Shown here piece after piece: positions 1,112 to 26,988 of a stretch of DNA of 64,000 bases. Under the pieces are notes generated by a model that was not told where the DNA came from, searched no databases, and saw only the letters and a program-made list of their open reading frames with translations. A program made the position numbers and the translations under genes. Position 1 is the first letter of the stretch; each line of letters starts with the position of its first letter. This DNA comes from Zootoca vivipara (Eukaryota), in contig NC_083284.1 in assembly GCF_963506605.1 (NCBI RefSeq), positions 10,602,001-10,666,000 of the forward strand. Reading direction: 5' to 3'.

Positions 1112-1501
1112 AAACTACATTTATGCACCCACTTCCCATTAAATTACACTGTACTTGCCTTTCCCATGGGCAGATTTTTGGATTGCAAGCTGCTAGGGAC
1201 AGAGACCAGTCTTTTTTTAAGCTCCAGAAAGCTTTGTGTGTATTGATGGTATTGCATTAACAGGACTCACACACACACACCCCGACAAAGCACAAACAAC
1301 ATTTAGCAAGGAACTAGAAGCAAGATACAAAAGGACTAACAACACTTGTCATCTAGGAAACATGCCAACTCTTCTCCTGCAATAACAAGCTACCTATTAA
1401 CCCTTTCAGTTTTCTAGAACTGCTCAGTCCCAGCAGCTTATACTGCAGCCTCCGTGTGAACAATCTCCTATGCTAACAACCAGAGAACCGCTGAAACTCA
1501 C

Positions 1502-1510
1502 ACAATCCAT
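1502..1510 (-). CDS. First coding exon (MDC) of a third galectin paralog continuing beyond the left edge
   Basis: ATGGATTGT|GTGAGT inside sequence paralogous to the exon 1/promoter blocks of copies A and B. The downstream exons are not in the window. Confidence 0.7.
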
Positions 1511-1597
1511 GGGATACTCTTGCAGGAGTCCGACCAACAAGTAAGCAACTTTCTCTTCTGCCTCAGTTCTGCAGTTCTAGCAGAACAAGCCCCAGCT

Positions 1598-1740
1598 GCT
1601 TTAAATAGCTGGGGAAACAGCATCACCTGACAAAAAGGGTCTGCTGTGAGTGGGTGGTCTGTTCAGGTACCCAGAAATGCAAGGCAGAGAAAATCTGGGT
1701 TGATTAGCAAAAATCACTGATATGTTTAAACAGCTGTTGC
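1598..1740 (-). promoter_or_regulatory. Proximal promoter of third galectin copy
   Basis: TATTTAAA TATA-like element (~1600-1607), E-box CACCTG 1624-1629 and a TGACAAAAAGGGTCTGC block shared with the other copies. Confidence 0.55.
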
Positions 1741-2917
1741 TAGTTTGCTTTGCCGGCCCTCACCAACCTTTTGCTTTCCAGGTGTTTCGGACTACAGCTC
1801 CCATCAGCCTGAGCCCTCACCTGTGCTAGATGGGCTGATGGGATCTGTAGTCCAAAACACCTGGAAAGCACAAGGTTGGCAAAGCCCGCTTTATGCAATT
1901 GATTATCAGCAGCTTCCCAGCTGGCACTCATTGGAACATTTGCCCATTCTATTTTTTTACTTTGATCTGGGTTTTGAGTGCCAGCAGACCAAAAAAGGCA
2001 GGTCAGCAAACAACTGCGCCAAGGAAGTAAATGGTCTTCAGTGGAATAAGGTGATTGGTTCATGGACGAGTGAGGATTTGTACCAGGTCTTGCCTGTTGT
2101 AGTCTGGAATGGCTCTAACCACTACACCACACTGGCTTCCTACCAGCTGCTGTTACTATAGAACTGAGTACTTGCTAGTCTAGGCCAATGCAGAAGTGTC
2201 CCTTCCCACATCTTCTGGAATCTGGAGAAGCCTCAGCTGTGGACACAGCAAATGTCAGAGGGGTAGCCATGCTAATTTGCTGCAACAAAGGGAGAGAGTC
2301 ACTTAACAGGCCCTGTCAGCCAGTGGCATAGCGTAGGTTGCCAGCACCCGGGGCTGTGCAGAGGGCAGAGTACACATGCACATTCAACTTCAACTGCCTA
2401 ACGGCATCTGCGTCGCCCAGGAGATCGTAGATAAGCAAAGAATAGTTTTTCCGTTGTCTTGAGAGGTCACTTCCTGGTTCGCATGGAGAAGCCATTTTAA
2501 AGAGAGTCCAGCAACGGAAGCATGCAGCTGTATTGAGGCAGGGGTGTTAAAATTTTGCACCCGGGGCAGCTGTCCCTATGGCCCCCACCCACTCTATGCC
2601 ACTGTCTTCAGTGGCTGTGCAAAAGGACTTTCACCACCACTATGTACCACCCAAATTGGCTCGGTGAGAGTCAGGAGAACCCCCAAAAGAGTGTGATGGA
2701 GAAGGAAGGGATTGTTCCATCTGACAAGCTGTAAAGTTTGTGCAGATGAAGCATTTGTCAGAGTGACATGCTGAATTCCACCCAAAGTATCTTGTGACTA
2801 GGGAGAATTTTGATCGAGTTCACATTTAAAGGTTAACCCACCCATCCAGTTCCCAATTTCCAAAGCAGTAAAAAGTGTGTCTCTTTTAAAAAAATAAAAA
2901 ATCTCATATTACAGAAT

Positions 2918-3137
2918 GTTGTTGTTTAGTCGTTTAGTCGTGTCCGACTCTTCGTGACCCCATGGGCCATAGCACGCCAGGCACTCCTGTCTTCCACTGC
3001 CTCCCACAGTTTGGTCAAACTCATGTTCGTAGCTTCGAGAACACTGTCCAACCATCTTGTCTTCTGATGTCCCCTTCTCCTAGTGCCCTCAATCTTTCCC
3101 AACATCAGGGTCTTTTCCAAGGATTCTTCTCTTCTCA
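2918..3137 (-). mobile_element. Bov-B (RTE) LINE 3' end
   Basis: LEKTLMLGKIEG...HGVTKSRTRLND, (CAA)n tail, TSD ATATTACAGAAT. Confidence 0.9.
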
Positions 3138-3163
3138 ATATTACAGAATAAACAGTATTAAAA

Positions 3164-3317
3164 TGGATAGCTCAGTTGGTTAGAGCATGGTGCTGATAAT
3201 GCCAAGGTTGCAGGTTCGATCCCTGTATGGGGCAGCTTCATATTCTTGCTTTGTGTGGGGGTTGGACTAAATGACCCTCAGAGTCCTTTCCAGTTCTACA
3301 GTTCTATGATTCTATGA
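3164..3317 (+). mobile_element. tRNA-derived SINE with CR1-type tail
   Basis: A/B-box head (TAGCTCAGTTGGT...GGTTCGATCC) and (TTCTATGA)n tail. Confidence 0.75.
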
Positions 3318-4362
3318 AAATAAAAAAAACCATCTACCCTTTCCAAGACATGAGGTCAGATTCTTACATCCTTTAGTTATATTTAATAATAATTTTAATA
3401 ATAATTTTATTATTTATACCACACCCATCTGGCTGGGTTTCCCCACTCTGGGCGGCTTCCATTTGTGAGACAATTCCAGTTACCACATGCAAACATAGCA
3501 ACCCAAACATTTTGTAATTAGTGGAGGAGGTCCCACTAATTTTTCCGTACATGATAAAAGTACACCAACCCACAAACTGTCTCTTTGACCAAGGAAAATA
3601 TTGTGGTCTAAGGTTTCACTATAAAAATATCACCAGGGTTTGGTTTCGGTTTTGAGAAATAATTTGGAGTTGTAGCCAACATTAGTCCTACTCTGAGGTA
3701 TTAATAGACTTGGTAAACTTAAGCCCATTAATTTCACTGGGTCTTCTCTGAGTAGAACCTAGTTGCACACAATCCTTTACCGGTGTCCAACGCAAGAGGT
3801 AGCAAAAAGGTGAACCCACTGGTCTTGCATCAGTGCGATTTACATCTTCAATCCACAGTTGAACATCTGTTGCAGCAGGTGTTGCAAATTGTGGAGTTGC
3901 CAAATTTCGCACTCCGGTTCTGCAGCTGTGCCTTTAACAGTAGCTTTTACATGCAGCAATTGGCAGGTGAGAATTGCTAAGCTCCCTGCTGTGAAAAGCT
4001 CATACAGTCCAGAGGTGCTATTAAAGGCACATTCTGATGGTTTCCTAAAAATAGAGCCATCTGAAGGTTGTTCAATGCCTGGGTGGGTTGCAGGGATGTT
4101 GGGGAGAGAGAAGTGAGAAGAGAAATGAGAGGGAGTGAGTGAGTGAAACAGAGAGTTTAGTAGAAATGATAGCTAAAGTAGAGTGTGTGCTAAAAAGAGG
4201 AAACAGGAGTGGGTTGGCAGGAACTGGGCTTTGCCCGCATTGGCAGAGTGCGAATAAAGGCCACATTTTCCACTGAGAAAGGAAGCAATATTTCTGTCTG
4301 GGCTGCACCACCTCAGCTTGGTCAGATGACAGAATTCACCTGCATACAAAAGATTCCCTCTG

Positions 4363-4568
4363 CAGACTCAGAAGAGGACAGGATTTCTGTGCCTTTAATT
4401 GCCCTGCTCTCTTTTGAGTCTGGAAACCTTAAAGAGAAACCAGCAGATGCTTTATTTAATTTCCAAGCAAAGGGTCTGCTGGTTTCTCTTTAAGGTTTCC
4501 AGACTCAAAAGAGAGCAGGGCAATTAAAGGCACAGAAGTCCTGTCCTCTATTGAGTCTGGCAACCCTA
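4363..4568. repeat. Long inverted repeat / fold-back MITE
   Basis: About 85-bp near-perfect arms (4363-4447 / 4476-4560) around an AT-rich loop. Confidence 0.85.
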
Positions 4569-5248
4569 TTGAAGACTAACGTGTTGCAATGATGGCCAAG
4601 CTACAACCTCTCTCATTGCCTGCTGGCATGTTAAGTCTCTTGGCTGGGAGGGATTTTAAAAATAATAACAAACAGAGAAGCCTGAAGTAATTACTGTACT
4701 ACCTGCGGTCTGAAGTGGTGCAGCCTAGATTTATGGCCTTGTGGAAAACTAAACCTAAGATGCACATACAAAAAAGGAATGCAAAACAATTAGTTGGGTA
4801 GCCATAAGACCTTTTACTTCCTGAGGCAATTGTGAGCGCATACCGGTACTTGCACAGGGATAATCGGTAGTTCATGCAATCAATGTTAACCTCATGACTA
4901 GGTCTGCAAGGAAGGATTTTGTATTGTGCTTTATCACTAGTTTTATCCTGTGTATTTTTATATATTCTTGTTCCTGGCTTATATATTTTATATTAAGTTT
5001 AGAAATTCATTTAATAAATGAATTAAAACACAGACCCCTACAGCTTACACCTAGTTGTCTCTCTCTGAACTCTAACAATGCCTCTTGGTTGTCTGGATGA
5101 GGACCAGGGGGAGGTCTGTGAACGCACCTAGAAACTACCGTACTGTTCAAAAGCAAGATTTATATTTGTTTCTCTGCCCACTTTTGCCCTGACTCCACCC
5201 ACTATGGACATGTAGCCCTCACAAAGTTGCCTCATCCCACAGGGAATG

Positions 5249-5670
5249 CATAGCTGCCAAGTCTCCCGTTTCCCCCGGGAAACCCCCGTTTTTACTTACC
5301 TTTTCCCGGTGGTCCCCTGTATCACTTCGTCTCCCGTTTTTCTCTGTTATTTTCTCCTGCCAGCGGCCATTTTTTTCCTTTCCGATTTGCCCTTCTATGG
5401 GCACAAAAAATGGCCGCTGCCGGCTCCAAAAGTCGCATCTACGACTTCTGGTGTCGGCGGCGGCCATTTTGGTGCCCATAGATGGGTGGGGCGACACCGG
5501 AAGTTGCGTCGACGCACTTCCAGTCATGCGAAGAAGCTACTTTTGAAGCCGGCGGTGGCCATTTTTGGTGCCAATAGAAGGGCAAAGTGACACCGGAAGT
5601 TACGTCGACGCAACTTCCGTTGTCACACAGCTGCCGGTCCCGGATTCTGCAGTCCGGGACTTGGAAGGTA
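5249..5670. mobile_element. hAT-type MITE (CATAGCTGCCAAG family)
   Basis: Imperfect TIR and 8-bp TSD AGGGAATG. Absent from the paralogous flank of copy B. Confidence 0.75.
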
Positions 5671-5764
5671 AGGGAATGCAATGTTCGGACTGAAAAAGTG
5701 CCACCCGCCACCTGATATAAAATAAAACCATGTTACACTGCCCATTTCAAATAGCCAAGTTGAA

Positions 5765-5770
5765 TTTATT
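5765..5770 (-). terminator. Poly(A) signal AATAAA, galectin copy A
   Basis: AATAAA about 27 nt after the stop, conserved in copy B. Confidence 0.7.
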
Positions 5771-5796
5771 CGGACATGTTACAGGACTGCAGGAAA

Positions 5797-5949
5797 TCAA
5801 GAGCCGAAGAATTTGAGGCCTCTGATTCTGAAGCCTCCTTCCACCGCTATGTATTCAAGGACCCTCAGGCCCAGCCGGTTGGGAAAGGAGATCTCGTGGT
5901 CGTCATCCAGGAGCACCTTGATCTCAGAATTAAGGAATGTGAAGGAAAG
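5797..5949 (-). CDS. Galectin copy A last exon
   Basis: ccttgcag|CTTTCC..., encoding FPNRLG and YIAVEG, with TGA at 5799-5797. Confidence 0.92.
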   Translation of the reverse strand, partial: LSFTFLNSEIKVLLDDDHEISFPNRLGLRVLEYIAVEGGFRIRGLKFFGS

Positions 5950-6768
5950 CTGCAAGGAGCAGAGAGGGAGCCATCAACACAGGACACTGAACAGTTTTTT
6001 AAATGACCTGGCAACATTTTAACTTCTTAAATTGGAACCATCTCCTTCGGGAGGTGGTGGACTCTCCTTCCTTGGAGGTTTTTAAGCAGAGGTTGGACGG
6101 CCATCTGTCATGCATGCTTTAAGTTAATGCATACAGACTGCGCATGTGCAGCATCCGGGGTGCCGCCCCCGTTACCAGCTGGGCTAGGTACACCCCTGTC
6201 TTGGGGTCCCTTTCAACTCTACAATTCTACGATTCTAAGGGAATGGCAGACACTGTTGTCAACAGTGCAAGCTAGTGTGGTGTAGTGGTTAAAAGCGGTA
6301 GACTTGTAATCTGGGGAACCGGGTTCGCGTCCCTGCTCCTCCACATGCAGCTGCTGGGTGACCTTGGGCTAGGCACACTTCTCTGAAGTCTCTCAGCCAG
6401 GTGTCTGTTGTGGGGGAGGAGGGGAAAGGAGATGGTTAGCCGCTTTGAGACTCCTTCGGGTAGTGATAAAGCGGGATATCAAATCCAAACTCTTCTTCTT
6501 CTCTTCTTCTTCTTCTTCTTCTTCTTCTTCTTCTTCTTCTTCTTCTTCTTCTTCTTCTTCTTCTTCTTCTTCTTCTTCTTCTTCTTCTAGCCATTCTGGG
6601 TTTCACTTTCCTGACAACAGCACCAAAGGCTGCTTTGACCCCCAAGGCCTTTCCACTGCTGATGAGTCTGTAGTACATCAAAGCCCAAGGACCAGAAGAG
6701 CAGCATTTTTATGCCTATCCGCATACCGTAGAGCCACTCATACCAAAAGTGTGTCCACCTGACTTGCA

Positions 6769-6802
<34 letters not shown>

Positions 6803-9482
6803 GTGCATAAGCATTGTAATAAAAAACACATGGAATTCATAAACATCCACAAAACAAAGGCAACGATCATTTCATTTGTGTGCCCTTGTAATTAAAAACG
6901 GGACACAATTGTTGTTCAGACAGGCCAGGTCCCCCAACACTGGCATTCCAGTTGTTCTGCACATATAAAAGGAACCCTCCTATGAAACATGGAGGCGTCC
7001 CACTTTCCCATGTGCCAGGGAAAGTAAACTTGTCCCCCCTCCAGATGTTGTTGGCCTGTTGGTTCCATCATGCCTCACCATCAGCCATGCTAGCCGAGGC
7101 TGATGGGATTATAATGTCATCTGGAAGGCTACAAATGCTTCTCCCTCGGAACAGGGAACTCCAGGAGAAGCTGCCTGCCTGCCTCCATTTGATCTACTGC
7201 TCAGACCTCACCTGAACTCTGCCGCCTTGCTGAAAAGGGAACTTGGAGATGCTCTCCTCCTCTTTCCCCCACACCCCATTTTCCTTGGAGTTGCACACAA
7301 TGGTGTTCGGACACTTCTGGCGGTGAAAGCGCGGATTGAAGTAAAGAACGAGGTTATCAGGGTCTTGGCCCAGTTTCACAACAAATCTTGAAGAGGTTTG
7401 AAAGTTATGAAAGAAACAAGAATAACAAACGTGAGAGGCTTACTGGACTTCAGCTGCAACAACAACAGGGCCCCTCTCCTAGGGGTTCACATGCTTGCCA
7501 TGCCGTAAGAATATTGAGAACATTCTTACATGCCACTTCAATCTCTGACGGGTGTGAGACTCCAGGGGTTTCAAGCGCTTACCAAGGGTTCGCGTTTCCT
7601 TCAGAATGAGGTGCAGCAGAGACTGAGGTTCACAGCATTAACACCCCCTTTGCTTCCCCCTTAGATGCAGCCTTGGATTCAAGCAGAAATCAGGCATGGC
7701 TCTGGCTTCCCTGGCTTCCCAGCTTCTAGCTTCTAGGTCACATAACTCAACTCTCTCTCCCAGTCTTTGTCTTTGTAACTACCAGTGAGTTGAGTGGGGG
7801 GGGGGGAGCACCCATTTGACCTCTGGCACTGAGCCACTTCCTTTGCTACCTGAATGACCCATACTTTGGGCCATTAGGAATAAGCAGGAATCTCGCCTGG
7901 CTAGTCTAGGAATTGTATCCATGCTGGATCCAAGAAGTGGAACGCCCTCCCATCAGATGTCAAAGAGAAAAACAGCTACCAGATTTTTAGAAGACATCTG
8001 AAGGCAGCCCTGTTTAGGGAGGCTTTTAATGTTTAATAGATTATTTTATTTCATTTCTCTGTTGGAAGCCACCCAGAGTGGCTGGGGTATAAATAATATA
8101 TTATTATTATTATTATTATTAATTATTATTATTATTATTAGGGGACCCAGGCATATAGCCTAAAAAACCCACCTCAAATTCATATATTGTGCTGGATTTG
8201 GGCTTCATGAAAACACTTTAAAAATTAAAAATAAAGCAAGGTTGTAGTCCTCATGGTTGCAGAGATTCAGGAATTATCTACCTGGAGCTTGATATAGACC
8301 AATGATGTCTATATCAAGGATGGAGCCCAAGATCTGCATAATGTGTCTGCCAATCCCTGTGACTCTTAAATTACTTAACTCACAACAATATCCCACATTC
8401 CCCATTACGTAATTTACAACAGCCTTGTAAGGAAGGCCAACATCCCCCTGCTGAAGATGAGGGGGCTACGGGAAGGCAACTTGGTTCATGGGACCAAGTA
8501 AGATACTGTATGCAGGTTCTAGACAAGGATGCTATAGGAAAGGCATCTTCAAATGTTTTGAAGGGCTTGCCATACTGATGGAGCAAGTTTATTTTGTTGC
8601 TGGCTACTGCATTCCGTAACCTGGTACCCTCCAGATGTTTTGGAAACTCCCTTCGGCCCCAGCCAGCTGGTAGGAACAAAGCCAAGGAAGAGGATTTCAC
8701 CTACACATTAGCACAGGGGGTGGGGCACCTGTTTAAGCCCAGTGGGGAGGTGCTTTGCATTCCTTTCTAGGTAACATGGCAGTCGCAAGCAGTGCCAGAG
8801 GCAGAAGAGGGTAGGCAAATACATTTTACTTTTGTACAATAGGGCATTTTCTCCATACACAGCCCTCTTGCAATCTCTCTCCTAATTTACTCTCCATTTT
8901 AAGGGTGTGGGCTGTAGTAGGAAATCAGGTAAAAAAAATGAGAGGATCTGTGTCCTACATCCTGCCTTGTTTAGAACATGATTCGCCCTTCCATGCCCTA
9001 TTTTAATAAATCCGGTGCTTCGGCATTCAGCTTAAGATCTTGGTACAGGTTTTAATTGCTATGTCCTGGACGCATGACCTGGGCAGAGCTTGCCCGGCAT
9101 ACGCAAGAGATTCTCCGTTCTCAGAAACACGTTTAAGGGCTATGTACACAGTGTGCCTACACCCGAGTTCCCGGAGACATGTGATATTCCCCCCCTTCCC
9201 TACTCACTCTTTGGCATCTGGCAGGATCCTCCCTTTCACCTGGACCATGTCTCCATGCAGGGCTTGGAAATCAGTGGCAACCACTCCCTAGGGGAAGGGG
9301 AAACAAGAGACATTTTTTCAGCCGCAGTGTTGGCAGGATGAGATTCAGGAGGGGAAGGGGAAGGGAAATTAATGTGCTTACCGTTTTTGTCCTGGAAATA
9401 AGGTGAGCCCAGGGACCACTGAGCAGACTTGGCGGTTTCTGCAAAAGGAGGACAGAGGGAAGCCGTCGACAGAGACAGACAC

Positions 9483-9543
<61 letters not shown>

Positions 9544-10593
9544 GACAGACAAGAGCACAGATAACATTGGTTAGTGCAGTGCTAGGGAACCTGTGCAGCA
9601 ATTTCAACACTCAGGTTAATAGAATGAGCTGCTTCCAGGAACTCTGCTTTAGGGCAGCCTACAAATACAGTGGTGCCTCGCAAGACGAATTTAATTCGTT
9701 CCGCGAGTCAATTCGTTTTGCAAAAAAATCCGTCTTGCGAATCGCGGTTACCCATAGGAATGCATTGAAAGTTCTTTTTTTGCCCATAGGAACACATTAA
9801 TTAAATTTCAATGCAATCCTATGGGACACCGTGATTCGCCAGACGAATTTTTCGCAAAACGAATTCGTCTTGCGAGTCACCATCAGATCGCAAGACGCAT
9901 TCGTCTTGCAAAAAAATCGTCTTGCAGGGCATTCGTCTTGCGAGGTACCACCATACTGTAAGTGAACCATAGAATAGATGACTTAGCCACATTCACTCAA
10001 ATACAGATGTTTTCAAGCCCTTCTCAGATCCCACATTTTCCTGCTAGGTCCTTTATTTATATAATTTCTATCTTGCCCCAGTGAGCAGCTGACCTCCTGC
10101 ATTTTGCAGTAGCTGCTGCTTCTGGACCTACCTTAGAAGCAGTATAATGAAATTTGGAACATATTCACAAACATATGGTTATAAATAACCCTACATGTAT
10201 TTGGATAACAACGACATTTATATGCCTGTATTCTAGAGAAGCACTTGTGGAATTGTAGTTGATTGCATACATAGTGATATAATACACCTTCTTTTTCTCT
10301 TTATGACTTTTTATTTTTACTTTATTTTGCTCAATTGAAATGCTCTCGATACAAAATTAAAATAAAAGAACCCAGAAGCAGCAAGAGAAACAGAGGCAAG
10401 AAGTCAGAGATACTGTATAAGAGTTAGCAGCTGAGATACAATCATGCTCCTCCCTAGAGAGAACAAGCCTCCTATTAACCCTTCTAATTTTCCAGCCTAG
10501 TTTTATTGCACTTGGTGGTATTACAGCTTCAATAGCAACTGCCTCCTATACTAACAACCACAAAAATGGACATACAAGACTCACGGACTGCAT
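5797..10593 (-). CDS. Galectin-1-like (16 kDa beta-galactoside-binding lectin/CG-16-like) copy A, 5 exons, 157 aa predicted
   Basis: Manual splice join(10593..10585, 9438..9382, 9287..9208, 7386..7212, 5949..5797), all GT-AG and in frame: MQS|KPPSLLSGPWAHLISRTKT|GVVATDFQALHGDMVQVKGRILPDAKE|FVVKLGQDPDNLVLYFNPRFHRQKCPNTIVCNSKENGVWGKEEESISKFPFQQGGRVQ|LSFTFLNSEIKVLLDDDHEISFPNRLGLRVLEYIAVEGGFRIRGLKFFGS*. Galectin motifs FNPRF, IVCNS, WGxE, FPF, FPNRLG are present, and intron phases match galectin-1. Confidence 0.9.
6268..6588 (+). mobile_element. tRNA-derived squamate SINE (Squam3-like) with (CTT)n tail
   Basis: TGGTGTAGTGGTT/GGTTCG boxes and a long TTC tail at 6491-6588. Confidence 0.75.
7212..7386 (-). 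CDS. Galectin copy A CRD core exon (175 nt)
   Basis: ttcaag|ATTT...GTTCAG|gtgag, encoding LYFNPRF, IVCNS, WGKE, FPFQQG. Confidence 0.93.
7935..8140 (+). mobile_element. L2 LINE 3' end
   Basis: TGGAACGCCCTCCC...GAAGACATCTGAAGGCAGCCCTG with (ATT)n tail. Same family at ~35160-35500 and ~48505-49170. Confidence 0.7.
9208..9287 (-). CDS. Galectin copy A 80-nt exon
   Basis: ttcccctag|GGAGTG...AAAGA|gtgagt, encoding GVVATDFQALHGDMVQVKGRILPDAK. Confidence 0.9.
9382..9438 (-). CDS. Galectin copy A extra 57-nt exon (KPPSLLSGPWAHLISRTKT)
   Basis: cctccttttgcag|AAA...ACG|gtaagc, phase 0-0, no stop. Same length and position as the exon in copy B. Confidence 0.7.
9468..9552. repeat. (AGAC)n microsatellite
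   Basis: Directly visible. Confidence 0.95.
9668..9958. mobile_element. Tc1/mariner-type MITE
   Basis: CAGTGGTGCCTCGC...GCGAGGTACCAC TIRs flanked by TA. Confidence 0.8.
10585..10593 (-). CDS. Galectin copy A exon 1 (MQS)
   Basis: ATGCAGTCC|GTGAGT. A 9-nt coding first exon as in galectin-1, paralogous to 1502-1510 and 24845-24853. Confidence 0.8.
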
Positions 10594-10664
10594 AATGATC
10601 TCTTCCAAGGGTGCAGCCAAAGAACCAAAACTTTATTTCTTCCAACCTCTGCGAATGAAGCCCC

Positions 10665-10810
10665 ACTTAAATAGCTGAGGCTTGTTTTCAAGGTCCTTTT
10701 AAACCGCATCACGTGATAAAAAGGGTTTGCAGTGAGTGGAGGGTCTGCTCCTCTCTCTAGCATTGCAAGGTGGAGAAAATCAGAGTCAATAGGCTAAACA
10801 GCTGGCCTGT
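10665..10810 (-). promoter_or_regulatory. Proximal promoter of galectin copy A
   Basis: TATTTAAG (~10666-10673), E-box CACGTG 10710-10715 and the shared AAAAAGGGT block. Confidence 0.55.
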
Positions 10811-10827
10811 TTCTGACGACTGGGAAC

Positions 10828-11227
10828 CGGTGCCGGATTTACGTATAAGCTAAACAAGCTATAGCTTAGGGCCCCACTCTCTTTGGGGGGGGGGGGGCAA
10901 ACAATTTAAAGGGGGAAAAACTGGGTGTACATTTCCAAAATATAAGAAAAAAACAAATAAAATGGCTTTAGATACCTATTANNNNNNNNNNNNNNNNNNN
11001 NNNNNNNNNNNNNNNNNNNNNNNNNNNNNNNNNNNNNNNNNNNNNNNNNNNNNNNNNNNNNNNNNNNNNNNNNNNNNNNNNNNNNNNNNNNNNNNNNNNN
11101 NNNNNNNNNNNNNNNNGAAAAACCAGCAACAATTTGTTGTTGACATATAAAGCTGGACATATAAAGGGCTCCATTACCTTCAGTAGCTTAGGGCCTAAAT
11201 CTGACCCTGACCCTAAATCTGACCCTG
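10828..11227. mobile_element. hAT-type MITE (spans assembly gap 10982-11116)
   Basis: 8-bp TSD CTGGGAAC on both sides and imperfect TIRs. Confidence 0.75.
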
Positions 11228-11769: not shown

Positions 11770-13340
11770 GAGAGGACGGGAGGGTCGGGCAGGCAAGAGG
11801 GGGTGACAGGGTGGGCGAGGGCAAGGCAAGGCACGGCCGCAGTCATGACGGCTCCAAGGCGTTGCTGCATATCAGCATAATATTTCAACCATGTTGTGGG
11901 TTCAAGCCCCACCTTAGGAAAAAATTCCTGCATTGCAGGGGGTTGGACTAGATGACCCTTGTGGTCCCTTCCGACTACAATTCTATGATTCTATTGATAT
12001 ATTGCCATAGCATATGCATCATTCTGCTTTCTTGAATTGTCCTACTCCTAGGCATAGCAGCCAACTCCTAGAGGCCTAGGTGCCTCCCCCCCCCCAATTA
12101 CTAGTAAATACCGTATGTGAAAGAGTCATCCCCCCATGTTGATGGGCTTTCTATGTGGGGCTTATCTGCCCCCCCCCCATATTTTATTAAGAATGGAAGA
12201 GGGAGGGAAGGAAGGAAGAAATAGAGAGAGGGGTAACTCATATTTGTGGGTGCCTCTGGGTGACGCTGTGATGCTGGAACTCTGCAGCAAGAGGACGGGA
12301 GGGTCGGGCAGGCGAGAGGGGGTGGCAGGGCAGATGAGGGCGAGGGAAGGCACGGCCGCAGTCACGACAGCTCCGAGGCGTTGCTGCATATCAGCATAAT
12401 ATTTCAACCATGTTGTGGGTTCAAGCCCCACCTTAGGAAAAAATTCCTGCATTGCAGGGGGTTGGACTAGATGACCCTTGTGGTCCCTTCCGACAACAAT
12501 TCTATGATTCCATTGATATATTACCATAGCATATGCATCATTCTGCTTTCTTGAATTGTCCTACTCCTAGGCATAGCAGCCAAATCCTAGAGGCCTAGGT
12601 GCCTCTCCCCCCCCCCAATTACTGGTAAATACCGTATTTGAAAGAGTCACCCCCCCCATTTTGATGGGCTTTCTATGTGGGGCTTATCTGCCCCCCCCAG
12701 TATTTTATTAAGGATGGAAGAGGGAGGGAAGGAAGGAATAATAGAGAGAGGGATACCTCATATTTGTGGGTGTCTCTGGGTGATGCTGTGAAGCTGGAAC
12801 TCTGCAGCAAGAGGATGGGAGGGTCGGGCAGGGGAGAGGGGGTGGCAGGGCAGGCGAGGGCGAGGCAAGACAGGGCCGCAGTCTTGATGGCTCCGAGGCG
12901 TTGCTGCATATCAGCATAATATTTCAACCATGTTGTGGGTTCAAGCCCCACATTGGGGAAAAATTCCTGCATTGCAGGGGGTTGGACTAGATGACCCTTG
13001 TGGTCCCTTCCGACTACAATTCCATGATTCTATTGATATATTACCATAGCATATGCATGATTCTGCTTTCTTGAATTGTCCTAGGCATAGCAGCCAACTC
13101 CTAGAGGCCTAGGTGCCTTCCCCCCCAAAAAAGAAATTACTGGTAAATACTGTATTTTAAAGAGTCCTCCCCCCCCCATTTTGATGGGCTTTCTATGTGG
13201 GGCTTATCTGCCCCCCCCCCCCAGTATTTTATTGAGGATGGAAGAGGGAGGAAAGGAAGGAAGAAATAGAGAGAGGGATAACTCACATTTGTGGGTGCCT
13301 CTGGGTGACGCTGTGATGCTAGAACTCTGCAGCAAGAGGA
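11770..13340. repeat. Tandem triplication of a ~520-bp unit
   Basis: GTTGCTGCATATCAGC at ~11861/12380/12900 and TTGATGGGCTTTC at ~12139/12661/13181. Confidence 0.9.
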
Positions 13341-17310: not shown

Positions 17311-18170
17311 AGTGTCTGTTTTGGGTGATGTCACATTACCTCATATAGCATCCTCTCACTCATGCCCACAGCTACTGTGTCATTGGGGCAGGGGTCGCGA
17401 GGCGGCGCACATAATGTGGCTTCTGAATATACCGTACTTTCCTTCCCCACCTCCCAGGAGATCTTCCTCAGTGGCCTTTCCTGGTAAGTGGTTGCTTATT
17501 ATTTTGTCCGTCTAGATTACTTGTTGTTTAGTCGTTTATAGTCCTGTCCGACTTTTCGTGAACCCATGGACCAGCACTTACCTGCCCAAAATGTGCAAAG
17601 AATTACCATGATCTTGCTTCAAAACATTGACCTGTGCATCATGCCTTTGAGACTGCAACCCTTTTGTGGGCGGACACCTCCCCTGTACTGTTTTAATCCT
17701 GTGATTTAAACTGCCAGCCAGGACAACCCATCAGAATAGGTACCAAACAAAAGAGGCTTTCATATCATTTTGACACAGGCAACTGTAGAAGAGGACACCA
17801 GAATTTCCCCTTTTGCATGTTTAGACCTTTAAACCTCCCCCTATAAATAAATTCAGACAAAACTCAAATTTTGGTTTGGTTTTTGGCAGAATTTAGGCCA
17901 CAACTTTATTGATTACATCGGGTGAGTGGTTGCACCTGATGTAATCAATAAAGGGCACCAGCCTAGGTCAGGCTAGGGTGAACACCTGGAATGGCGGAAA
18001 GCTGGGAACAGGCTATGTCCACCACCCAGATGTCCCCCTGGACTCGGGCATGGGACCAAACCATTGAGTCCCTGGATTCCTTTAACGGAATACCCTTCAC
18101 ATAGGGATGGCGAGAGCGTTCCCCCATCCCTTTCACCTGAACCAGAGCCCATTCACAACCTTACAAGTTG

Positions 18171-18488
18171 CATAGCTGCCAAGTCTCCCGTTTTCCCCGG
18201 GAAATCCCCGTTTTTCCAGCTGTTTTTTCCCTGGTTTATTCTGGCACGGCGGCCATTTTGGTACTGGGCGGAGCATGCTCAGAAGCGACTTTTGATGCTG
18301 CTCTGCCCAGTTCCAAAATGGCTGCAGTGCGACTTCTGGCGCAGCGGCCATTTTGGAACTAGGCAAAGCAGCATCAAAAGTCACTTCTGAGCATGCTCCG
18401 CCCAGTTCCAAAATGGCAGCAGCGCTACTTCCGGCCTGCTATTTCCAGCCCGGTCCCTTATTTCTCTGACAGCAACTTGGCAGGTATG
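18171..18488. mobile_element. hAT-type MITE (CATAGCTGCCAAG family)
   Basis: TIR CATAGCTGCCAAGT/ACTTGGCAGGTATG with TSD ACAAGTTG. Confidence 0.85.
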
Positions 18489-19057
18489 ACAAGTTGTGAC
18501 GATTTGCTACGCAGCAGGCGAAACCCAAGTGGCACCAGCCAATCAGCCAAGTGGGGAAAATTCCTGCTGTGCCCCTGTGCCAATGACAGACGACACACGA
18601 CGGCATAGCAAGGTCAAGCGCGCAAGCCCTAGAAGTAGGGAGAGGTGGGCAGGTGTTCCGATGCACTGACCAGAAAAGGAAGCTCTGAGTAACATGCATG
18701 GGCATATATAGGTCCCTTGATTGGTTTGGCTAGCGTCCCATTGGCCTGATTAACCCAGCATCAAGGGACCTACCAATAGGGTGTTGTGGCTATCCAATCG
18801 TACCCACCCACAACACAGGGTTCGGTTGCCAGGTTGCACCGCAACATGTGCCCTCTTTGAGGACATGATTTCCCCACAGCAAATGCAGGACAGCAGGATG
18901 TACCAATTTTTATAAAATACAGGTGGGGAACCTCAGTCCAGTGACCCAAATGTGGTCCCCAAGCCTCCTTTGTCTGGCCCTCCATATGTTTCCTAGCCAC
19001 ACACCCCTATTTCACATCTTCAAGTGTTCTTGCCCAATGCCTCCTGCTTGTCTAGAG

Positions 19058-19545
19058 CAGAGGATTTCAACCTTTGAGTCCACGGCTCCCTTGACCAACT
19101 ACATTCTTTCTGTGGCACCCCTGTGGGGCTCGGAAATTGGGCGGCGCTGGGACCCAAAATGGAGCCTCCCTGGCAGGTAGGAAATCTGGGGGGTTTACGG
19201 GATTCTTTCCAATCCGGGCTGCCAGCGGGAAACAGTTTAAAATACAGGGGTTTCCCGCGAAAAACGGGAGACTTGACAGCTATGGTCTAGATCAGGCACC
19301 CCCAAACTGCGGCCCTCCAGATGTTTTGGCCTACAACTCCCATGATCCCTAGCTAAGAGGATCAGTGGTCAGGGGTGATGGGAATTGTAGTCCCAAACAT
19401 CTGGAGGGCCGAAGTTTGGGGGTGCCTGGTCTAGACCAGCCTTTTTTAACCTTGGCTTAGTTCCCATCACCCTTGGTTCTGCTAGCTAGGGATGATGGGA
19501 TTTGTAGCCCAATAACAGCCGGGGACCCAAGGTTGAGAGAGGCTG
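19058..19545. mobile_element. Stack of hAT (Charlie-like) MITEs
   Basis: Elements separated by repeated GTCTAGAN target sites at 19050, 19285, 19429 and 19546. Confidence 0.8.
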
Positions 19546-19767
19546 GTCTAGAGGGAGATGTGAGTGGGGCCTTTGAGTGTGCCTAGAATATACCCTACTG
19601 TTCAAATGCAATATTTCTATTTGTTGCCCTGCCTCTGGCTCCACCCACCATGGTCATGTGAGCCTCAGAAGGCTCCCCAGCAGGTAATGAGGTTCCCGGA
19701 CTCAAAAATATTTCCCCTCACCGTTATAAACTAAAACCACGCAGGCAGTTTTTGAAGAACAGATGAG

Positions 19768-19773
19768 TTTATT
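19768..19773 (-). terminator. Poly(A) signal AATAAA, galectin copy B
   Basis: AATAAA about 38 nt after the stop. Confidence 0.7.
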
Positions 19774-19810
19774 CAGACTTGTTGCAGGACTGCAGGGACA
19801 CAGAACGAAA

Positions 19811-19957
19811 CTAGAGAAATTTGAGGGTTCTGATTCTGAAGTCTCCTTCCACCCTGATATAGCCGATGGTCTTCAGGCCCAGCTGGTTGGGAAAGGTGAA
19901 CTCATGACCCTCTGCCAGCTTCACCTTGATCTCCGCAGAAAGAAAAGTGAAGGAAAG
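19811..19957 (-). CDS. Galectin copy B last exon
   Basis: ttcttgcag|CTTTCC..., encoding FPNQLG and VEGDF, ending in TAG. Confidence 0.92.
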   Translation of the reverse strand, partial: LSFTFLSAEIKVKLAEGHEFTFPNQLGLKTIGYIRVEGDFRIRTLKFL

Positions 19958-22900
19958 CTGCAAGAAGCAGGAGGAGGAGGAGTCATGAGAAAACCAGGAC
20001 ACTAAACGCTTTACATGCCCTGAAAGACTAAAAGGAATGGCAACTACTGCCTAGACATTGGGAGTTCAGCATTTCCATTTCCTGTCTGAGGCTACTTCTA
20101 CCCAAGTGCTTACATTTCAGCTGATCAGGAGGCACTTCAGAGCCAGGGGCGTAGCAAGGCGCCGCAACACCCGGGGCGGCATATTGCCATGTTCCGGGGG
20201 CGCGCGCAGCGTCGCTATGTAACGACACATGCTACTTCTAAACAGAGTGCCCAGGCTCCAGGTAGATAACCCACTGGCGTGGCACGCCCACCACACCAGT
20301 GGGCTATCTGCCTGGAGCCTGGGTGCTCCGTTTAGGCTCCATTTTGAAGTCACGGGGGTGCAGTACCCTCTCTGTTGTACGCATGCACAGCATCCCGCTG
20401 CACACGCATGCTAGGTAGAGGAGGATCGCGCGCCTCCCGCGACTTCTAAACAGAGCGCCCAGGCTCAGGCAAGGTGCCGATCCCGGGGTGGGGGCGCGGC
20501 CCCGAGTGACACCCCCTCCAGGGCAGTACCCAGGGTGGACCGCCCCCCCACCCGCTTGCCCCGCCCCTGTTCAGAGCCCAAGGACCAGAGTTGTCTTAAT
20601 CCATGGGTAGGCAAACTTAGGCCTGGGGGCAGGATCCAGCCCAATTGCCTTCTAAACCCAGCCCACAGATGGTCCGGGAATGAGCGTGTTTTTACATGAG
20701 TAGAATGTGTTCTTTTATCTAAAATGCATCTCTGGGTTATTTTGGGAGCACAGGAATTCGTTCATTTTCCCCCCAAAATATAGTCTGGCCCCCCACAAGG
20801 TCTGAGGGACAGTGGGCCGGCCCCCTGCTGAAAAAGTTTGCTGACCCCCTGGACTTAATCCCTCATGTTAAAAGCAGGATAAGATGCGGAGAAGGGTGTA
20901 CATGCTAGTTTTCTGTAGGCAAAGGTGAACTGGCCTGTGCACTTATTTTTTTTTTTTTAAAGCACAGAAGTCTTATTCAGTCAAGCCACTCTCCAAACAC
21001 CTGCATTCCAGTTCTATACATATAAATTTAATTTTTTTGAAAGAAGGAAGGTCCTCCTTCCACACCCTCTAAGGCAGCCATCCCCAAACTCAGCCCTCCA
21101 GATGTTTTGGGACTACAACTCCCATCTTCCCTGACCACTGGTCCTGTTAGCTAGGGATGATGGGAGTTGTAGTCCCAAAACATCTGGAGGGCCGAGTTTG
21201 GGGGTGCCTGCTCTAAGGGAAAGATACCTGGGGTCTTCCAGATGGTCAGGTATTGCTCCCATGGCTGACCATTGGCCATACTGGCTGGGGTCGATAGGAG
21301 TACAAGCATTGCATGACCTCTGCAGAGAAGCCACTCCCCTACCTCCTCCATTCGCACACAGACCTTCGATAAGACTGCCACACCCTCACCTGAACTTTGG
21401 CACCTTGCTCAAAAGGGAAATCGGTGATTCTCTGTTCTTTCCCCCATACGCCGTTCTGCAAGGAGTTGCACACGATGGTGTTCAAAATGGTGTTGTCGTC
21501 CGTCTGGTAGTCAAAGCGGGGGTTGAAGTGAAGGACGAGGTTGTCGCGATCCTGGCCCAGATTCACGACAAAACTTGAAGAGGATGGAAGTTATGGAAAA
21601 CAAAGAGCGTGGAGGTTAAGGCTTCCTGGACCTCTGTATAAACAAACAACAACTACGCAGCCCCCCTCTTGGGCATCTACCTGTATGCCAAACAGTGAGA
21701 GCATTTAGTGCTATATTTGGGCTTCATCATCATCATCAATTATTTATACCCCGCCCATCTGGCTGGGTTTCCCCAGCCACTCTGGGCGGCTTCCAACAAA
21801 ATATTAAAATACAATAATGTATTAAACATTAAAAGCTTCCCTAAACAGGGCTGCCTTCATGAGAACAGTAGCTTTAAAAATAAATAAAATAATAAAATTA
21901 AAATAAAGCACGGTTCTAGCGCTCATGGTTGCAAGAGTATCACACGGGAACTAGCAACCTAGAGCAGCATATAGACCAGGGTTTCCCAAACTTGCGTCTC
22001 CAGCTGTTTTTGGACTACAGTTATCATCCATGACCATAGGGTCCTGCTAGTTAGGGACGATGGGAGTTGTAGTCCAAAAACAGCTGGAGACCCAAATTTT
22101 GGAAACCATGATATAGACCAGGCATGTCAAACCTGCGGCCCTCCAGATGTTTTGGACTACAATTCCCATCTTCCCCAACCACTGGTCCTGCTAGCTAGGG
22201 ATCATGGGAGTTGTAGGCCAAAACATCTGGAGGGCTGCAGGTTTGACATGCCTGATATAGACTGTTGGGGGGGCAGGATGTACCCCAACATTTCCCCTTC
22301 CCCCCATGGGTCATTTGAGAATCACCGCAGGTCCACATAGAGAACTTGGTGATTTTCCTCTGCCTGTTGTACTGCAACAGGTGCTGTAGGATTTTGAATT
22401 ACGTTTTTACAGACAGGCTATAGGCCAACCGAATGAAGCTCACAGATCAGAGTTTGGAGAGCCCTGTCGTGCAACAGGAGTCACAAAGTGTGCAACATAG
22501 GATTCTCCACACTCCATCCTAGCTAGCATGAAAAATTAAGAGTTCAATGGAACATTCCAACCAGGCAAGAACACTCTGCAGGCATCAGGGCCAGTGAGGG
22601 ATTCAGCCTGGGGAGAGGGCCAAGGGCCAAAGAACGGTGTGGAGGGCCACTTCTCATCCTCACCCCCGCATTAGCAAAACTATCCAAGGCTGCATTTGCG
22701 CTCCTGTCGACTCCTGCTGGAGCTTTAAATCTGCATCCGCATGATGTCATCTAGAGTAACTGCATTATTTTGAGAACCAGTGGGGAGTAGTGGTTAGAGC
22801 GCTGGACTTGCACCTCGGAGACCCAGGTTCAAATCCCTGCTCAGCTATGAAACTCTATGGGGCATCCCCCCTCCCCCGCTGTCACTCAGCCTAACCTACC

Positions 22901-24853
22901 TTGCAGGGTTGTTGGAAGGATAAAAAATGGGTGGTTGTTTTTTTTTAAAAAAATTCCTTCCAGTAGCACCTTAAAGGTAAAGGTAAAGGGACCCCTGACC
23001 ATTACGTCCAGTCGTGACCGACTCTGGGGTTGCACGCTCATCTCGCATTATTAGCAGAGGGAGCCGGCGTACAGCTTCCAGGTCATGTGGCCAGCATGAC
23101 AAAGCCGCTTCTGACAAACCAGAGCAGCGCATGGAAACGCCGTTTACCTTCCCACTGTAGCGGTTCCTATTTATCTACTTGCATTTTGACATGCTTTCGA
23201 ACTGCTAGGTTGGCAGGAGCTGGGACCAAGCAATGGGAGCTCACCCCGTCACAGGGATTCAAACCGTTGACCTTCTGATCAGCAAGCCCTAGGCTCAGTG
23301 GTTTAACCCACAGCGCCACCTGGGTCCCCCCAGTAGCACCTTAGAGACCAACTAAGTTTGTCATTGGTATGAGGTTTCGTGTGCATGCCTCGTGTGTGTA
23401 TCTGAAGAAGTGTGCATGCACACGAAAGCTCATACCAATGACAAACTTAGTTGGTCTCTAAGGTGCTACTGGAAGGAATTTTTTTATTTTGTTTCGACTA
23501 CGGCAGACCAACACGGCTACCTACCTGTAACTAAAATGGGGAAAGTGTGCATGCCACCTTTCACTCTCTGGAGGAAAGGTGGGATAGAAATATAATAAAT
23601 TACAAACGGGTATCCTGTGTAACAGGCAACAGTTTGGTGCAGTTTTATAAAGACTGGAGTCCTTAAGGTGTTCCCAACTCATCTCTAGCCAAGCTACGAA
23701 CACCTTTGCATAGGAATTAGACATTTCTGCCCCATAAGTGCTCTCTGGTGTGTATACTAACTAACTGAAGCCATGCGGAAATGAACAGCTTCGGGGCCAA
23801 GCTGGGGAGATAGCAACTTCTCTGTACTCCAAAGCAGTAATATGAATGCACAAGAGTCTCAATACGCTTTCCTCCTTCCCAGCTTACTCTTTGGCATCCG
23901 ACGGGATCCTCCCTTTCAGTTGGACAGTCTCTCCATGCAGAAGGAGAAAATCCGTCGCAACCAGCCCCTAGAGAGGAGGGAAACACATCTTCAACTGCGG
24001 TGGTGGAATGGTGAGATTTAGGAGGGAAAGGGGCAAGAAAGTGAATGCTCTTACTTTCATTGGGTTGGAGTGAACCCGGGTCCATGGATCAATGAGGGCA
24101 CTTCCTAATACCTGTGGGACGGGACAAGAGGAAGGAGTCACCAATAAATCAATAGGCAGAAGCACTGAGCATTTCATTTGCTACAGCCAGTGTTGGGAAT
24201 CCAAGGGTTGTCAGATCTTTAGGACTAGCAGCCTGCTAGTCCCATATAGCAAGCAATTACTTCTCCCTCCTGCCATGTTATTCCCAGTAGCAACCTCCAA
24301 TTAAAAGTGCTGCATTCACTGACTCTTATAGGGAAGCCTAAAGACACTGCAAATAAATCGTTGTTGTTGTTTGCATACTCATGTTTCCAAGCCCTCTTCA
24401 AATCTTGCCTTTTCTGTGAAACCTCAACACCCATCCCTTCTACAAAGACTTTTTGAGTATGAACTGCATTGGCACACATTCGCCTCTTAAGTTACATTAC
24501 ACTCATCTCTCCCACGGGCAGACCTTTGATTGTAAGCTCTGCAGGGCAGAGACCATTCCCTCCCACCTTTATACTAGAAAGCACAACTGTATGGATAGCA
24601 CATCATTATTAACAGAGGACAGCCCTACTAACAATGCACCAAGAATAGGTTATCAAGAACCCCAAAGCAAGGGAAAGATAGAATGCAATAGTGACACATA
24701 CAAAATGTGCTTGTTTCCTAGCTGATACACCGCTTCCCCAAGAAACCTATTGATGCTTATAAGTTTCCGGCCTTGTTTAGGTCTTGCTGCTTGTAAAACA
24801 ATCTCAATCTCAGTAACCAAGGAGCAGCAATAAAGAGGACTCACGGGATCCAT
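19811..24853 (-). CDS. Galectin-1-like (16 kDa beta-galactoside-binding lectin/CG-16-like) copy B, 5 exons, 158 aa predicted
   Basis: join(24853..24845, 24111..24055, 23967..23888, 21573..21390, 19957..19811): MDP|VLGSALIDPWTRVHSNPMK|GLVATDFLLLHGETVQLKGRIPSDAKD|FVVNLGQDRDNLVLHFNPRFDYQTDDNTILNTIVCNSLQNGVWGKEQRITDFPFEQGAKVQ|LSFTFLSAEIKVKLAEGHEFTFPNQLGLKTIGYIRVEGDFRIRTLKFL*. Carries the full HxNxR...N...WGxExR signature. Confidence 0.92.
20144..20569. mobile_element. hAT-type MITE in copy B last intron
   Basis: CAGGGGCG...CGCCCCTG TIR with TSD TTCAGAGC. Confidence 0.8.
21390..21573 (-). CDS. Galectin copy B CRD core exon (184 nt)
   Basis: ttcaag|TTTT...GTTCAG|gtgag, encoding LHFNPRF, IVCNS, WGKEQR, FPF. 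Confidence 0.94.
21977..22254. mobile_element. Two tandem hAT MITEs sharing one target site
   Basis: ATATAGAC at 21969, 22111 and 22255. Confidence 0.85.
22974..23328 (-). mobile_element. Sauria SINE inserted in a Penelope terminal repeat
   Basis: Sauria consensus, (ACCTTT)n tail and TSD CCAGTAGCACCTTA. Confidence 0.9.
23329..23530 (+). mobile_element. Penelope-like element terminal inverted repeat
   Basis: Matches the Penelope 3' end at ~63470-63598, here arranged as a hairpin. Confidence 0.8.
23398..23435 (+). ncRNA. Minimal type I hammerhead ribozyme motif (Penelope-associated)
   Basis: GTAT-CTGAAGA-A-GTGTGCATGCACAC-GAAA-GCTC-ATAC. Confidence 0.65.
23888..23967 (-). CDS. Galectin copy B 80-nt exon
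   Basis: ctctctag|GGGCTG...AAAGA|gtaagc. Confidence 0.9.
24055..24111 (-). CDS. Galectin copy B extra 57-nt exon (VLGSALIDPWTRVHSNPMK)
   Basis: cttgtcccgtcccacag|GTA...ATGAAA|gtaaga, phase 0-0. Confidence 0.7.
24845..24853 (-). CDS. Galectin copy B exon 1 (MDP)
   Basis: gtcATGGATCCC|GTGAGT. Confidence 0.8.
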
Positions 24854-24965
24854 GACACAATCTTGCTCAGGTCCAGCAATGCCTTCTCCCTTCCAATCTC
24901 AGTTCTGTGCCTCAGCAAAAGAAGTACCAGCCAGCTACCTTGAAAAAAGAAAGTCCTCCCTGGTG

Positions 24966-25090
24966 CCTTTAAGTAGCTGGGGGGAAATGGACCACATGAC
25001 AAAAAGGGTCTGCTGTCACTGGAGCTCTGTAGAAATGCAAGGAGGAGGAAAATCAGGGTCAACAAGCAACACAGCTGGCCTGTTTTGAAT
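24966..25090 (-). promoter_or_regulatory. Proximal promoter of galectin copy B
   Basis: TACTTAAA (~24968-24975), E-box CACATG 24993-24998 and the shared TGACAAAAAGGGTCTGC block. Confidence 0.55.
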
Positions 25091-26988
25091 GCAGGAGAAC
25101 AGTGATTATTAACTCAAACAGCTGGTGCTATTTCTCCCCACTGCCCTTCACTCACCTGGTACCCTCCAGGTGCTTTGGCGGCTGCAGCTCCCATCAGCAT
25201 TAGAGCCCTCACCTGTGCAGGTTGGGGGTGATGATAGTTGTAGTCCAAAACATCTGGAGAGGACATCCTTGGCCCCACTCTTCCTCCAAGAAACCCAGGA
25301 TGGCATACATGGTTTCCTCTCATTCACATCACAGCATTAAGCCAGCAGGCAACTGATCCAATAGAAAACAAGGAATTCAGAGCAGGGTCTCCCAAACTTG
25401 GGCCTCCAGCTGTTTTTGGACTACAACTCCCATCATCCCTAGCTAGCAGGACCAATGGTTAGGGATGATGGGAATTGGACTCCGAAAACAGCTGGAGACC
25501 CAAGTTTGGGAAACACCCCGTTAAAACATTTTTATTCGTCTTCAGTGTGGAAGGGCTGGAGCAGGGGTCAGCAAACTTTTTCAGCAGGGGGCCGGTCCAC
25601 TGTCCCTCAGACCTTGTGGGGGGCCAGGCTATTGGGGAGGGGGGGTAGAACGAATTCCTATGTTCCACAAATAACCCAGAGATGCATTTTAAATAAAAGG
25701 ACACATTCTACTCATGTAAAAACACGCTGATTCCCGGACTGTCCGCAGGCCGGATTTAGAAGCTGACTGGGTCAGATCTGGCCCCGGGGCCTCAGTTTAC
25801 CTACCCATGGGCTGGAGAATAGAGCCTGGAATGTGGCTGAGTCCTGGGGGATTTGAACCCAGGACTCACCTGTCCCAGCCTGACATGACTCTAACCACTA
25901 CCCCACATTGGTTTCCAACGAACAAATATATTGTGACATAAAATTTTATAAATATAAAGATCATAAATACAAACATTTCTATGTATACAGATTTTTTTGG
26001 GGAAAGGATAATATTGGGTTGCATCAAATGTTAGTCCAATGCTTAGGGTGGGGGGTGAATTGAAATTAATCGACATTGTTGACAGGTCCATTAAGTTCTC
26101 CTCGTAGTTGGAGACAGACTCTCTACATAGACCCCGTGCAAGAGGCAGCAGCAAAAAAAAAGTGTCAGCAGCAATCTTGCAGCAATGTGAATCAGCTTGA
26201 AAGGCATCTCCAAAGATTCGCAGAGACCATTAAAAATCCCTCCGCCCTCGTGGGGTGCTGTTGCATCAGCTGTTGCAGATTCTGGAGCTGCCAATTTTTC
26301 CAATCAGGTTCTGCGGCTGTGCCTTTAACAGAAGCGGTTAAATGCAGCAACTGGGAGGTCAAAATTGCTTATCTCCCTGCAGTGGAAAGCTTCACCTACT
26401 CATTCATATAGTTCAAGGCATTTTTAAAGACACGTTTCCCAAAACAGTAGTAGAGTCACAAGTATCCTTTCCTAGTAAACATTTGTTTGCAATTTTGTTG
26501 CTTGCATATGCATTCACAAAGAAACTAACTGTCCCAATTCTGCAAAGGAGAAAATCATTCCTATCCTCTTCCCTCAAAGATGGACAGGTGAATTATTACT
26601 TTAGATTAGCCCTTTCAGGGACAGACACCTCCCCTGCACAACTTTGGTTACCTATAATGCTCTACTGAAACAGGGACAGGTGCAGATCAAACTCAAGAGC
26701 TGTGTTTTTGTATTTTTAGCTGTAAGCTGTCTGAAAGAAAAGGCAGGATAGAAATGATATTATGGTTATTACGATTATATATATATCAATAAAAGCTCTG
26801 CAGAGTTCTGCAGAACTTCCTTTGACTTTCTGGGATCTAATTGCACAGACCAAATCCCTTCTGTTTATTCATTTAAAAGTTTGTCCCTGTTATTAATTGT
26901 GCGAGCAGCTGAAGGGAACGAAGAGATGCTTATGGCAGAATGAAGACCCTTGTTTCCATCTGAGGCTGGTGGCATCACATTAGGTGAC

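Follow-up and report, generated by a model that had tools for sequence, protein, structure and literature searches.

A five-gene galectin-1A array with a putative tail exon and altered sugar-binding residues in Zootoca vivipara

Galectin genes of the galectin-1A (Gal-1A, CG-16) type stand in tandem in the stretch of Zootoca vivipara DNA considered here and in the DNA to its left. The stretch, hereafter the window, comprises 64,000 nucleotides (nt) of contig NC_083284.1 (G000:C9:10602001-10666000), and 264 kb of DNA was fetched around the locus. A Pfam search of the genome, together with the fetched DNA, gives five complete four-exon galectin-1-type genes (A-E), head-to-tail on the minus strand; A and B are fully inside the window, as is exon 1 of C, and the rest of C, followed by D and E, lies to the left. 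These genes form a Gal-1A array that was likely duplicated locally before the lacertid-amphisbaenian split, and with a probability of about 60%, judging from sequence, its copies divide the work between them in predicted roles. An earlier note on the window, made from its letters alone, had proposed at least three copies; the array is bigger than this, and both a 57-nt exon in intron 1 and losses of sugar-binding residues were overlooked there.

Organisation of the array and its locus

All five genes have four exons, of which the first coding one is 9 nt long and the third carries the sugar site, as in the prototype galectin-1 layout. In A-C, exon 1 is followed by a GTGAGT donor, exon 2 measures 80 nt and exon 3 172-184 nt. 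All five have open frames, with pairwise protein identities of 44-71%, and all are 100% matches to RefSeq models labelled Zootoca vivipara, which derive from automatic annotation. The four-exon readings give 139 residues for A (24853-19811, minus strand) and 138 for B (10593-5797, minus strand). Five exon-3 matches were returned by the Pfam search within 50 kb on the contig, and searches with Pfam, tblastn and blastn and of the genome with exon 4 revealed no sixth array copy, the sensitivity of the last being limited, as it missed C. A 25-nt match at C9:10569110, considered as a sixth copy, was judged to be due to chance. The features are given below in window positions unless prefixed by C9. 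The joints refer to X1 and X2, two of the four sequencing runs examined on B, which are contig sets taken to be RNA by guess but containing intron-skipping joints.

Copy C
1502-1510, minus strand: coding exon 1 (MDC), ATG and two codons followed by a GTGAGT donor
C9:10600772-828, minus strand, left of the window: tail exon X, 57 nt, phase 0
C9:10600593-672, 10598123-294 and 10595925-6080, minus strand: exons 2-4; four-exon reading 100% identical to RefSeq P0006
1590-1716, minus strand: proximal promoter block, which aligns with its counterparts in A, B, D and E

Copy B
5797-5949, minus strand: exon 4 with stop; AATAAA starts at 5770; joint 5949-7212 in an X1 contig
7212-7386, minus strand: exon 3, sugar-binding, with H44Y, R73E and a one-residue insertion; joint 7386-9208 in X1 and X2
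9208-9287, minus strand: exon 2, from the gene reading and spliced joints
9382-9438, minus strand: exon X, 57 nt, phase 0, 19-residue tail (RefSeq P0122); joint of X to exon 2 in X1 and X2
10585-10593, minus strand: coding exon 1 (MQS); promoter block at approximately 10701-10812

Copy A
19811-19957, minus strand: exon 4 with stop; AATAAA starts at 19773
21390-21573, minus strand: exon 3, with all seven canonical residues and a four-residue loop insertion after the HFNPRF motif
23888-23967, minus strand: exon 2, from the gene reading
24055-24111, minus strand: exon X, 57 nt, phase 0, 19-residue tail (RefSeq P0002)
24845-24853, minus strand: coding exon 1 (MDP); promoter block at approximately 24958-25085

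Non-coding blocks
3867-4000, no strand: block upstream of C, paralogous to 26258-26391
26258-26391, no strand: block upstream of A, paralogous to 3867-4000

The three exon-1 starts reported in the earlier note (MDC at 1510, MQS at 10593 and MDP at 24853) are real, each having its GTGAGT donor and lying behind an alignable promoter block. Its two complete genes are A and B, with four exons, GT-AG introns, open frames and AATAAA signals, and its estimate of two-thirds identity between them agrees with 90 of 135 residues (66.7%). The third copy, which might have lacked downstream exons, has its exons 2-4 to the left of the window.

The array sits between SHROOM-type ASD2 exons (C9:10.556-10.563 Mb), which end approximately 10 kb past E, and a single long open frame with ankyrin repeats (44788-46938, minus strand), named SOWAHB from synteny; this interval is the Gal-1A site. 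The paralogue names SHROOM3 and SOWAHB are taken from published synteny (PMC4224342), according to which the order shroom3-gal-1a-sowahb is conserved across sauropsids and the same interval is without a galectin in frog, fish and mammals. A galectin beside SOWAHB, as previously remarked, is thus a real neighbourhood, albeit not a new one, being the published sauropsid gal-1a synteny (PMC4224342).

Three tandem 520-bp units, 91% alike, lie between A and B (11771-13340). In Podarcis lilfordi, a 299-residue model (P0128) fuses the A and B orthologues into a two-domain protein, which is probably an annotation artefact; the fusion shows that the two genes are adjacent in that species. Elsewhere in the window, positions 62774-63274 (plus strand) hold a 167-residue open frame that looks, from its motif, like the putative GIY-YIG endonuclease of a Penelope-type element.

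Origin of the copies

A maximum-likelihood tree (LG+G4) was computed from 59 of 86 rows over 131 columns, with tails excluded; 27 rows had been removed as redundant or partial before both the tree and the residue count given below, and masking was applied to mis-annotated ends in four rows, of which three stayed in. All five copies fall in the Gal-1A clade that includes chicken CG-1A (support 99/96, starred), and not with Gal-1B or mammalian Gal-1. Together with the top structure match, 1qmj, this upholds the earlier suggestion that the genes are nearer to CG-16 than to mammalian LGALS1, although one motif offered in its favour, AVEGDF, is absent from A (RVEGDF) and B (AVEGGF) and is found in E, outside the window. 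Within the clade, 19 array rows (A-E, the orthologues from Podarcis and Lacerta, and four models from Rhineura floridana) form one group (91/94), in which E and one Rhineura copy branch first, on short branches, and A-D form a starred clade with three Rhineura copies (98/93). E is the conservative copy. Podarcis and Lacerta orthologues exist for each of A-E, and a constraint uniting the four Rhineura copies was rejected (approximately unbiased test, p-AU 0.007), indicating that at least part of the expansion is older than the lacertid-amphisbaenian split. From consecutive accessions on one contig, we infer that the Rhineura genes are adjacent. Other squamates have one Gal-1A-type cluster each among the matches, which are clustered proteins and not genome annotations.

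It is very improbable that the copies are separate ancient galectin genes or a product of misassembly. The window does contain three short N stretches, one of them at 10982-11116 between A and B, but the copies differ at 29-56% of protein positions, have promoters and intron blocks in common and recur one-for-one in other lacertids. Separate ancient galectins, which the earlier note had also considered, are contradicted by the formation of one group inside Gal-1A.

In their four-exon readings, A-E have no cysteine among residues 4-12, and Cys8 is described as the Gal-1B marker (PMC4224342). A Gal-1B-like gene elsewhere in the genome (G000:C10:44238689-44244251, L014) has a cysteine in this region, as an N-terminal marker, and groups with bird and turtle Gal-1B-type rows.

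Pairwise ratios of nonsynonymous to synonymous substitution rates (dN/dS) among A-E range from 0.24 to 0.66, with synonymous divergence (dS) of 0.52-0.74, and the bootstrap upper limit is below 1 in seven of ten pairs, indicating that the frames have been kept under purifying selection. The duplication is old and its frames have stayed open, as had been proposed, with no stop or frameshift. The highest ratios belong to C (0.59-0.66), and three of its four intervals include 1. Identity between Zootoca C and the lacertid orthologues of this copy is 65%, whereas the other copies reach 81-97%, and relative-rate tests show Zootoca C to be the faster (23:6, p=0.002; 18:3, p=0.0015; 19:6, p=0.015; 23:12, p=0.09; four of 20 tests, p uncorrected). 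These values would fit a process of birth and death, in which selection on B, and above all on C, has been relaxed and these duplicates are decaying towards pseudogenes, as would the loss of tryptophan from the C tail, the skipping of exon X in the C RefSeq model and the finding that the site residues lost differ among B orthologues. Such decay is nevertheless improbable, given that all five genes are free of stops and frameshifts even at dS of 0.5-0.7, that B and C have orthologues in both Podarcis and Lacerta, and that B is spliced in two runs. Among the other copies, the Lacerta agilis orthologue of E (P0021) seems to be accelerated too (3:14, p=0.013; 5:14, p=0.06, uncorrected).

The sugar-binding site

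Seven residues are essential in galectins (H44, N46, R48, N61, W68, E71 and R73), and the sugar site is assigned to exon III of galectin genes (PMC12116657). All seven are canonical in each of A, D and E, and B carries H44Y and R73E, and C carries H44R and N61M. Since B and C lack canonical residues, they are regarded as galectin-fold paralogues and are not classed as canonical lectins, and reduced binding of galactosides is predicted for both. In galectin-3, loss of the residue equivalent to R73 lowers affinity for N-acetyllactosamine (LacNAc) by approximately 70-fold and for lactose by approximately fourfold (PMC2966122). Deviation from the canonical residues was found in 8 of 15 rows of the duplicate clade, compared with none of four E-type rows and 2 of 40 rows outside the array; which residues are lost varies with lineage, R48H occurring in Podarcis B and, in two Rhineura copies, R48C and W68C. 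As related rows are not independent, these represent about four lineages of site loss and not eight events. The previous description of a diversifying lectin cluster therefore holds for the local expansion and less well for its lectin character, B and C having lost canonical sugar-binding residues.

The galectin domain itself is present in every copy. A single Gal-bind_lectin domain (PF00337) was detected in all five proteins at 71-110 bits, against a curated cut-off of 22.1 (B being scanned as P0005). The model of A (predicted local distance difference test score 86) has CG-16 (1qmj) as its best fold match, with a template-modelling score of 0.94 by target length and 51% identity. Both A and B are modelled as a confident beta-sandwich with a low-confidence tail, and B has the same all-strand layout as A.

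An additional exon in intron 1

In A, B and C, intron 1 contains an in-frame, phase-0 exon of 57 nt (exon X), approximately 90-100 nt upstream of exon 2, which encodes a putative N-terminal tail of 19 residues. It accounts for the RefSeq models of A and B being about 19 residues longer than the four-exon readings. In D and E, the acceptor and homologous DNA are present in intron 1 but a GT donor is missing, with an insertion following in E. The simplest reading is that exon X was gained on the branch to A-D and then lost in D, a direction that we infer from these sequences. A transposon origin was considered and set aside, as all five copies have homologous DNA in intron 1 and a genome DNA search gave the self match only, a search that is weak for old repeats.

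The B tail is identical to that of Rhineura P0144 at 14 of 19 residues (74%), above the 67% of the lectin domains, and the A tail is identical to that of the Rhineura 325 gene at 10 of 19, below the 80% of the lectin domains. Tails of the A and B types have a serine-x-x-x-x-proline-tryptophan pattern in common, and the exon is in frame and 54-57 nt long in all 13 tails listed. Rhineura models occur both with and without exon X (P0144/P0066 and P0003/P0142). A tail-only protein search (P0122, residues 1-40) gave no candidate, but missed close relatives too and is hence uninformative on how far the tail has spread. An older origin of the tail was also considered. Among 51 retrieved proteins with N-terminal extensions, scored with an ungapped profile under which C-type tails also score low, the best outside the lacertoids was the Anolis sagrei isoform P0202, a score reached by 16 of 300 shuffles.

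X1 and X2 both contain joints of B from exon X to exon 2 and from exon 2 to exon 3, and X1 additionally one from exon 3 to exon 4, at depths of 4-8. In one X1 contig (depth 8.4), the last codon of X is ATG, which would give a tail-less domain and fits use of X as an alternative first exon. This bears on an alternative account, in which A-E are ordinary and largely redundant Gal-1A lectins, kept for dosage or tissue-specific expression, and exon X is a tolerated splice variant, a mostly untranslated alternative first exon or a source of start codons. In keeping with it are the seven canonical residues of A, D and E, the B contigs that reach upstream of X without exon 1, the ATG at the end of X in X1, the methionine near the end of A exon X, at which the P. 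raffonei model P0130 starts, and the older 122-residue RefSeq model of B (P0005), which starts in exon 2. However, the conservation of the B tail beyond that of its lectin domain and the maintenance of frame and length in all 13 tails suggest coding constraint on exon X, and the site losses are concentrated in the duplicates (8/15 as against 2/40), such that largely redundant copies are considered unlikely.

Shared non-coding sequence

The block upstream of C (3867-4000) and that upstream of A (26258-26391) are 82.8% identical, exceeding the coding exons, with no counterpart found at B, D or E; they constitute a candidate shared enhancer. The shared intronic block proposed earlier is also present (8221-8301 and 21894-21978, 77.9% identical), neither side being flagged as a repeat within the fetched 264 kb. 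The shared downstream block exists as well (5127-5224 and 19582-19670, 74.5% identical), but its B side additionally matches 30874-30988 and C9:10539702, marking it as being, in part at least, an old interspersed repeat at corresponding places.

Proposed roles of the copies

In the division of labour that we favour, E would keep the ancestral galactoside-binding and cross-linking role. A and D would bind sugars with altered fine specificity, through a site that still works but is flanked by changed loops, and B and C would have moved towards weak or no LacNAc binding, or towards non-canonical binding. Shared intron-1 sequence would have been turned into the 57-nt in-frame exon on the branch to A-D, with later loss in D, and its inclusion would produce an N-tailed prototype galectin of 157-158 residues, in a layout analogous to that of GRP and rat galectin-5. 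The first strand forms the dimer interface in Gal-1; as the tail adjoins this strand, it would act as a switch of protein contact or dimerisation. B and C would then work via protein contacts or unusual glycans and not by cross-linking LacNAc. Some copies have thus likely taken on new jobs.

Several observations weigh against this division of labour. The array group has a bootstrap value of 91, short of starred, and the outgroup sample consists of clustered protein matches and not genomes, so that an array in another squamate might go unnoticed. Every dN/dS interval that includes 1, three in all, comes from a pair with C. Approximately one quarter of the lactose affinity persisted in the galectin-3 mutant (PMC2966122), and B may accordingly retain binding of some galactosides. 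Between paralogues, the tails agree at only 3-8 of 19 residues. In X1 and X2, the B contigs contain no joint of exon 1 to X and the exon-1 bin has zero depth; moreover, both contigs extend 25 nt upstream of the X acceptor, up to a skipped microsatellite, which fits either an alternative start within intron 1 or RNA whose splicing is incomplete. The B exons had next to no depth in the other two of the four runs (raw-read runs X20 and X21, of each of which approximately 6% was read), and the A exons had zero depth in three of four runs and low depth in the fourth, which carries another organism label. No splicing of A was seen among the joints listed, a list dominated by repeats.

A bolder version of the division of labour, which can be entertained only tentatively, is that a third class of N-tailed prototype galectins arose independently in lacertids and amphisbaenians through an intron-1 cassette exon, and that the duplicates, having repeatedly lost the galactoside site (at H44, R48, N61, W68 or R73), would have become tail-dependent protein-binding factors, with C accelerating in Zootoca.

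No paper on the expansion, exon X or the site losses was found in a literature search that excluded most subscription journals. Family, fold and locus were known before and automatic annotation covers the genes, and the anatomy of the array appears to be undescribed. As this is a gene-family expansion at a known and annotated locus, its weight rests on functional tests. The array offers natural pairs on one scaffold, with and without a tail and with and without a sugar site, which would make the function of short galectin N-tails, an open question according to PMC8699261, directly testable.

Comparison with other galectins

Two further tandem galectin-1-like genes lie at G000:C2:13.62-13.65 Mb (L023 and L024). 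The protein P0084, from one of these, belongs to a starred clade whose other members come from lizards, snakes, turtles, alligator and tuatara and which has no bird row in the sample; the clade is sister to Gal-1A and may represent a third Gal-1 subfamily of sauropsids. As modelled by RefSeq, P0084 begins within the 3' end of the neighbouring gene. In addition, an intronless processed galectin pseudogene with stops and a frameshift is present at G000:C9:38838800-38839210 (L017), and its best score among eight queries is with Anolis P0157 of the P0084 clade. An LGALS1-like protein has been reported in marine-iguana femoral-gland secretions (PMC8143647), but nothing ties it to A-E, and a femoral-gland role for the array copies was set aside.

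The closest known system is chicken CG-1A/CG-16 (1qmj), which like the array occupies the shroom3-sowahb locus and has a single lectin domain, belongs to the same clade (99/96) and is the top fold match. Chicken Gal-1A mediates adhesion of limb precartilage, and Gal-1A is described as the conservative sauropsid copy (PMC4224342). As presented in the available text of that paper, sauropsid gal-1a is one conservative gene without positive selection, whereas the present array has five copies, of which three carry an additional exon and two have lost site residues. Chicken CG-1B/Gal-1B and mammalian LGALS1 have the same prototype galectin-1 fold and belong to the same family, but occupy another locus and clade.

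Lineage-specific Gal-1 duplications are known in frogs and fish, and four Gal-1 homologues in Anolis (PMC4224342). These are likewise cases of local multiplication, the frog copies being at the gal-1b locus (PMC4224342). In our tree, one Anolis cluster lies with squamate Gal-1A and another in a separate clade, and the available text of PMC4224342 does not place the four at the present locus.

GRP and rat galectin-5 are the only two N-tailed prototype-like galectins named in the available part of PMC8699261, where the function of the tail is called unknown. Both have a short N-terminal extension on a single domain, as would the putative tailed forms of A-C, and GRP has lost beta-galactoside binding, as is predicted for B and C. 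The tail of A-C is of independent origin, as judged from gene layout: rat galectin-5 derived from galectin-9 and keeps its first exon, whereas the A-C tail is an internal exon in intron 1 of galectin-1A.

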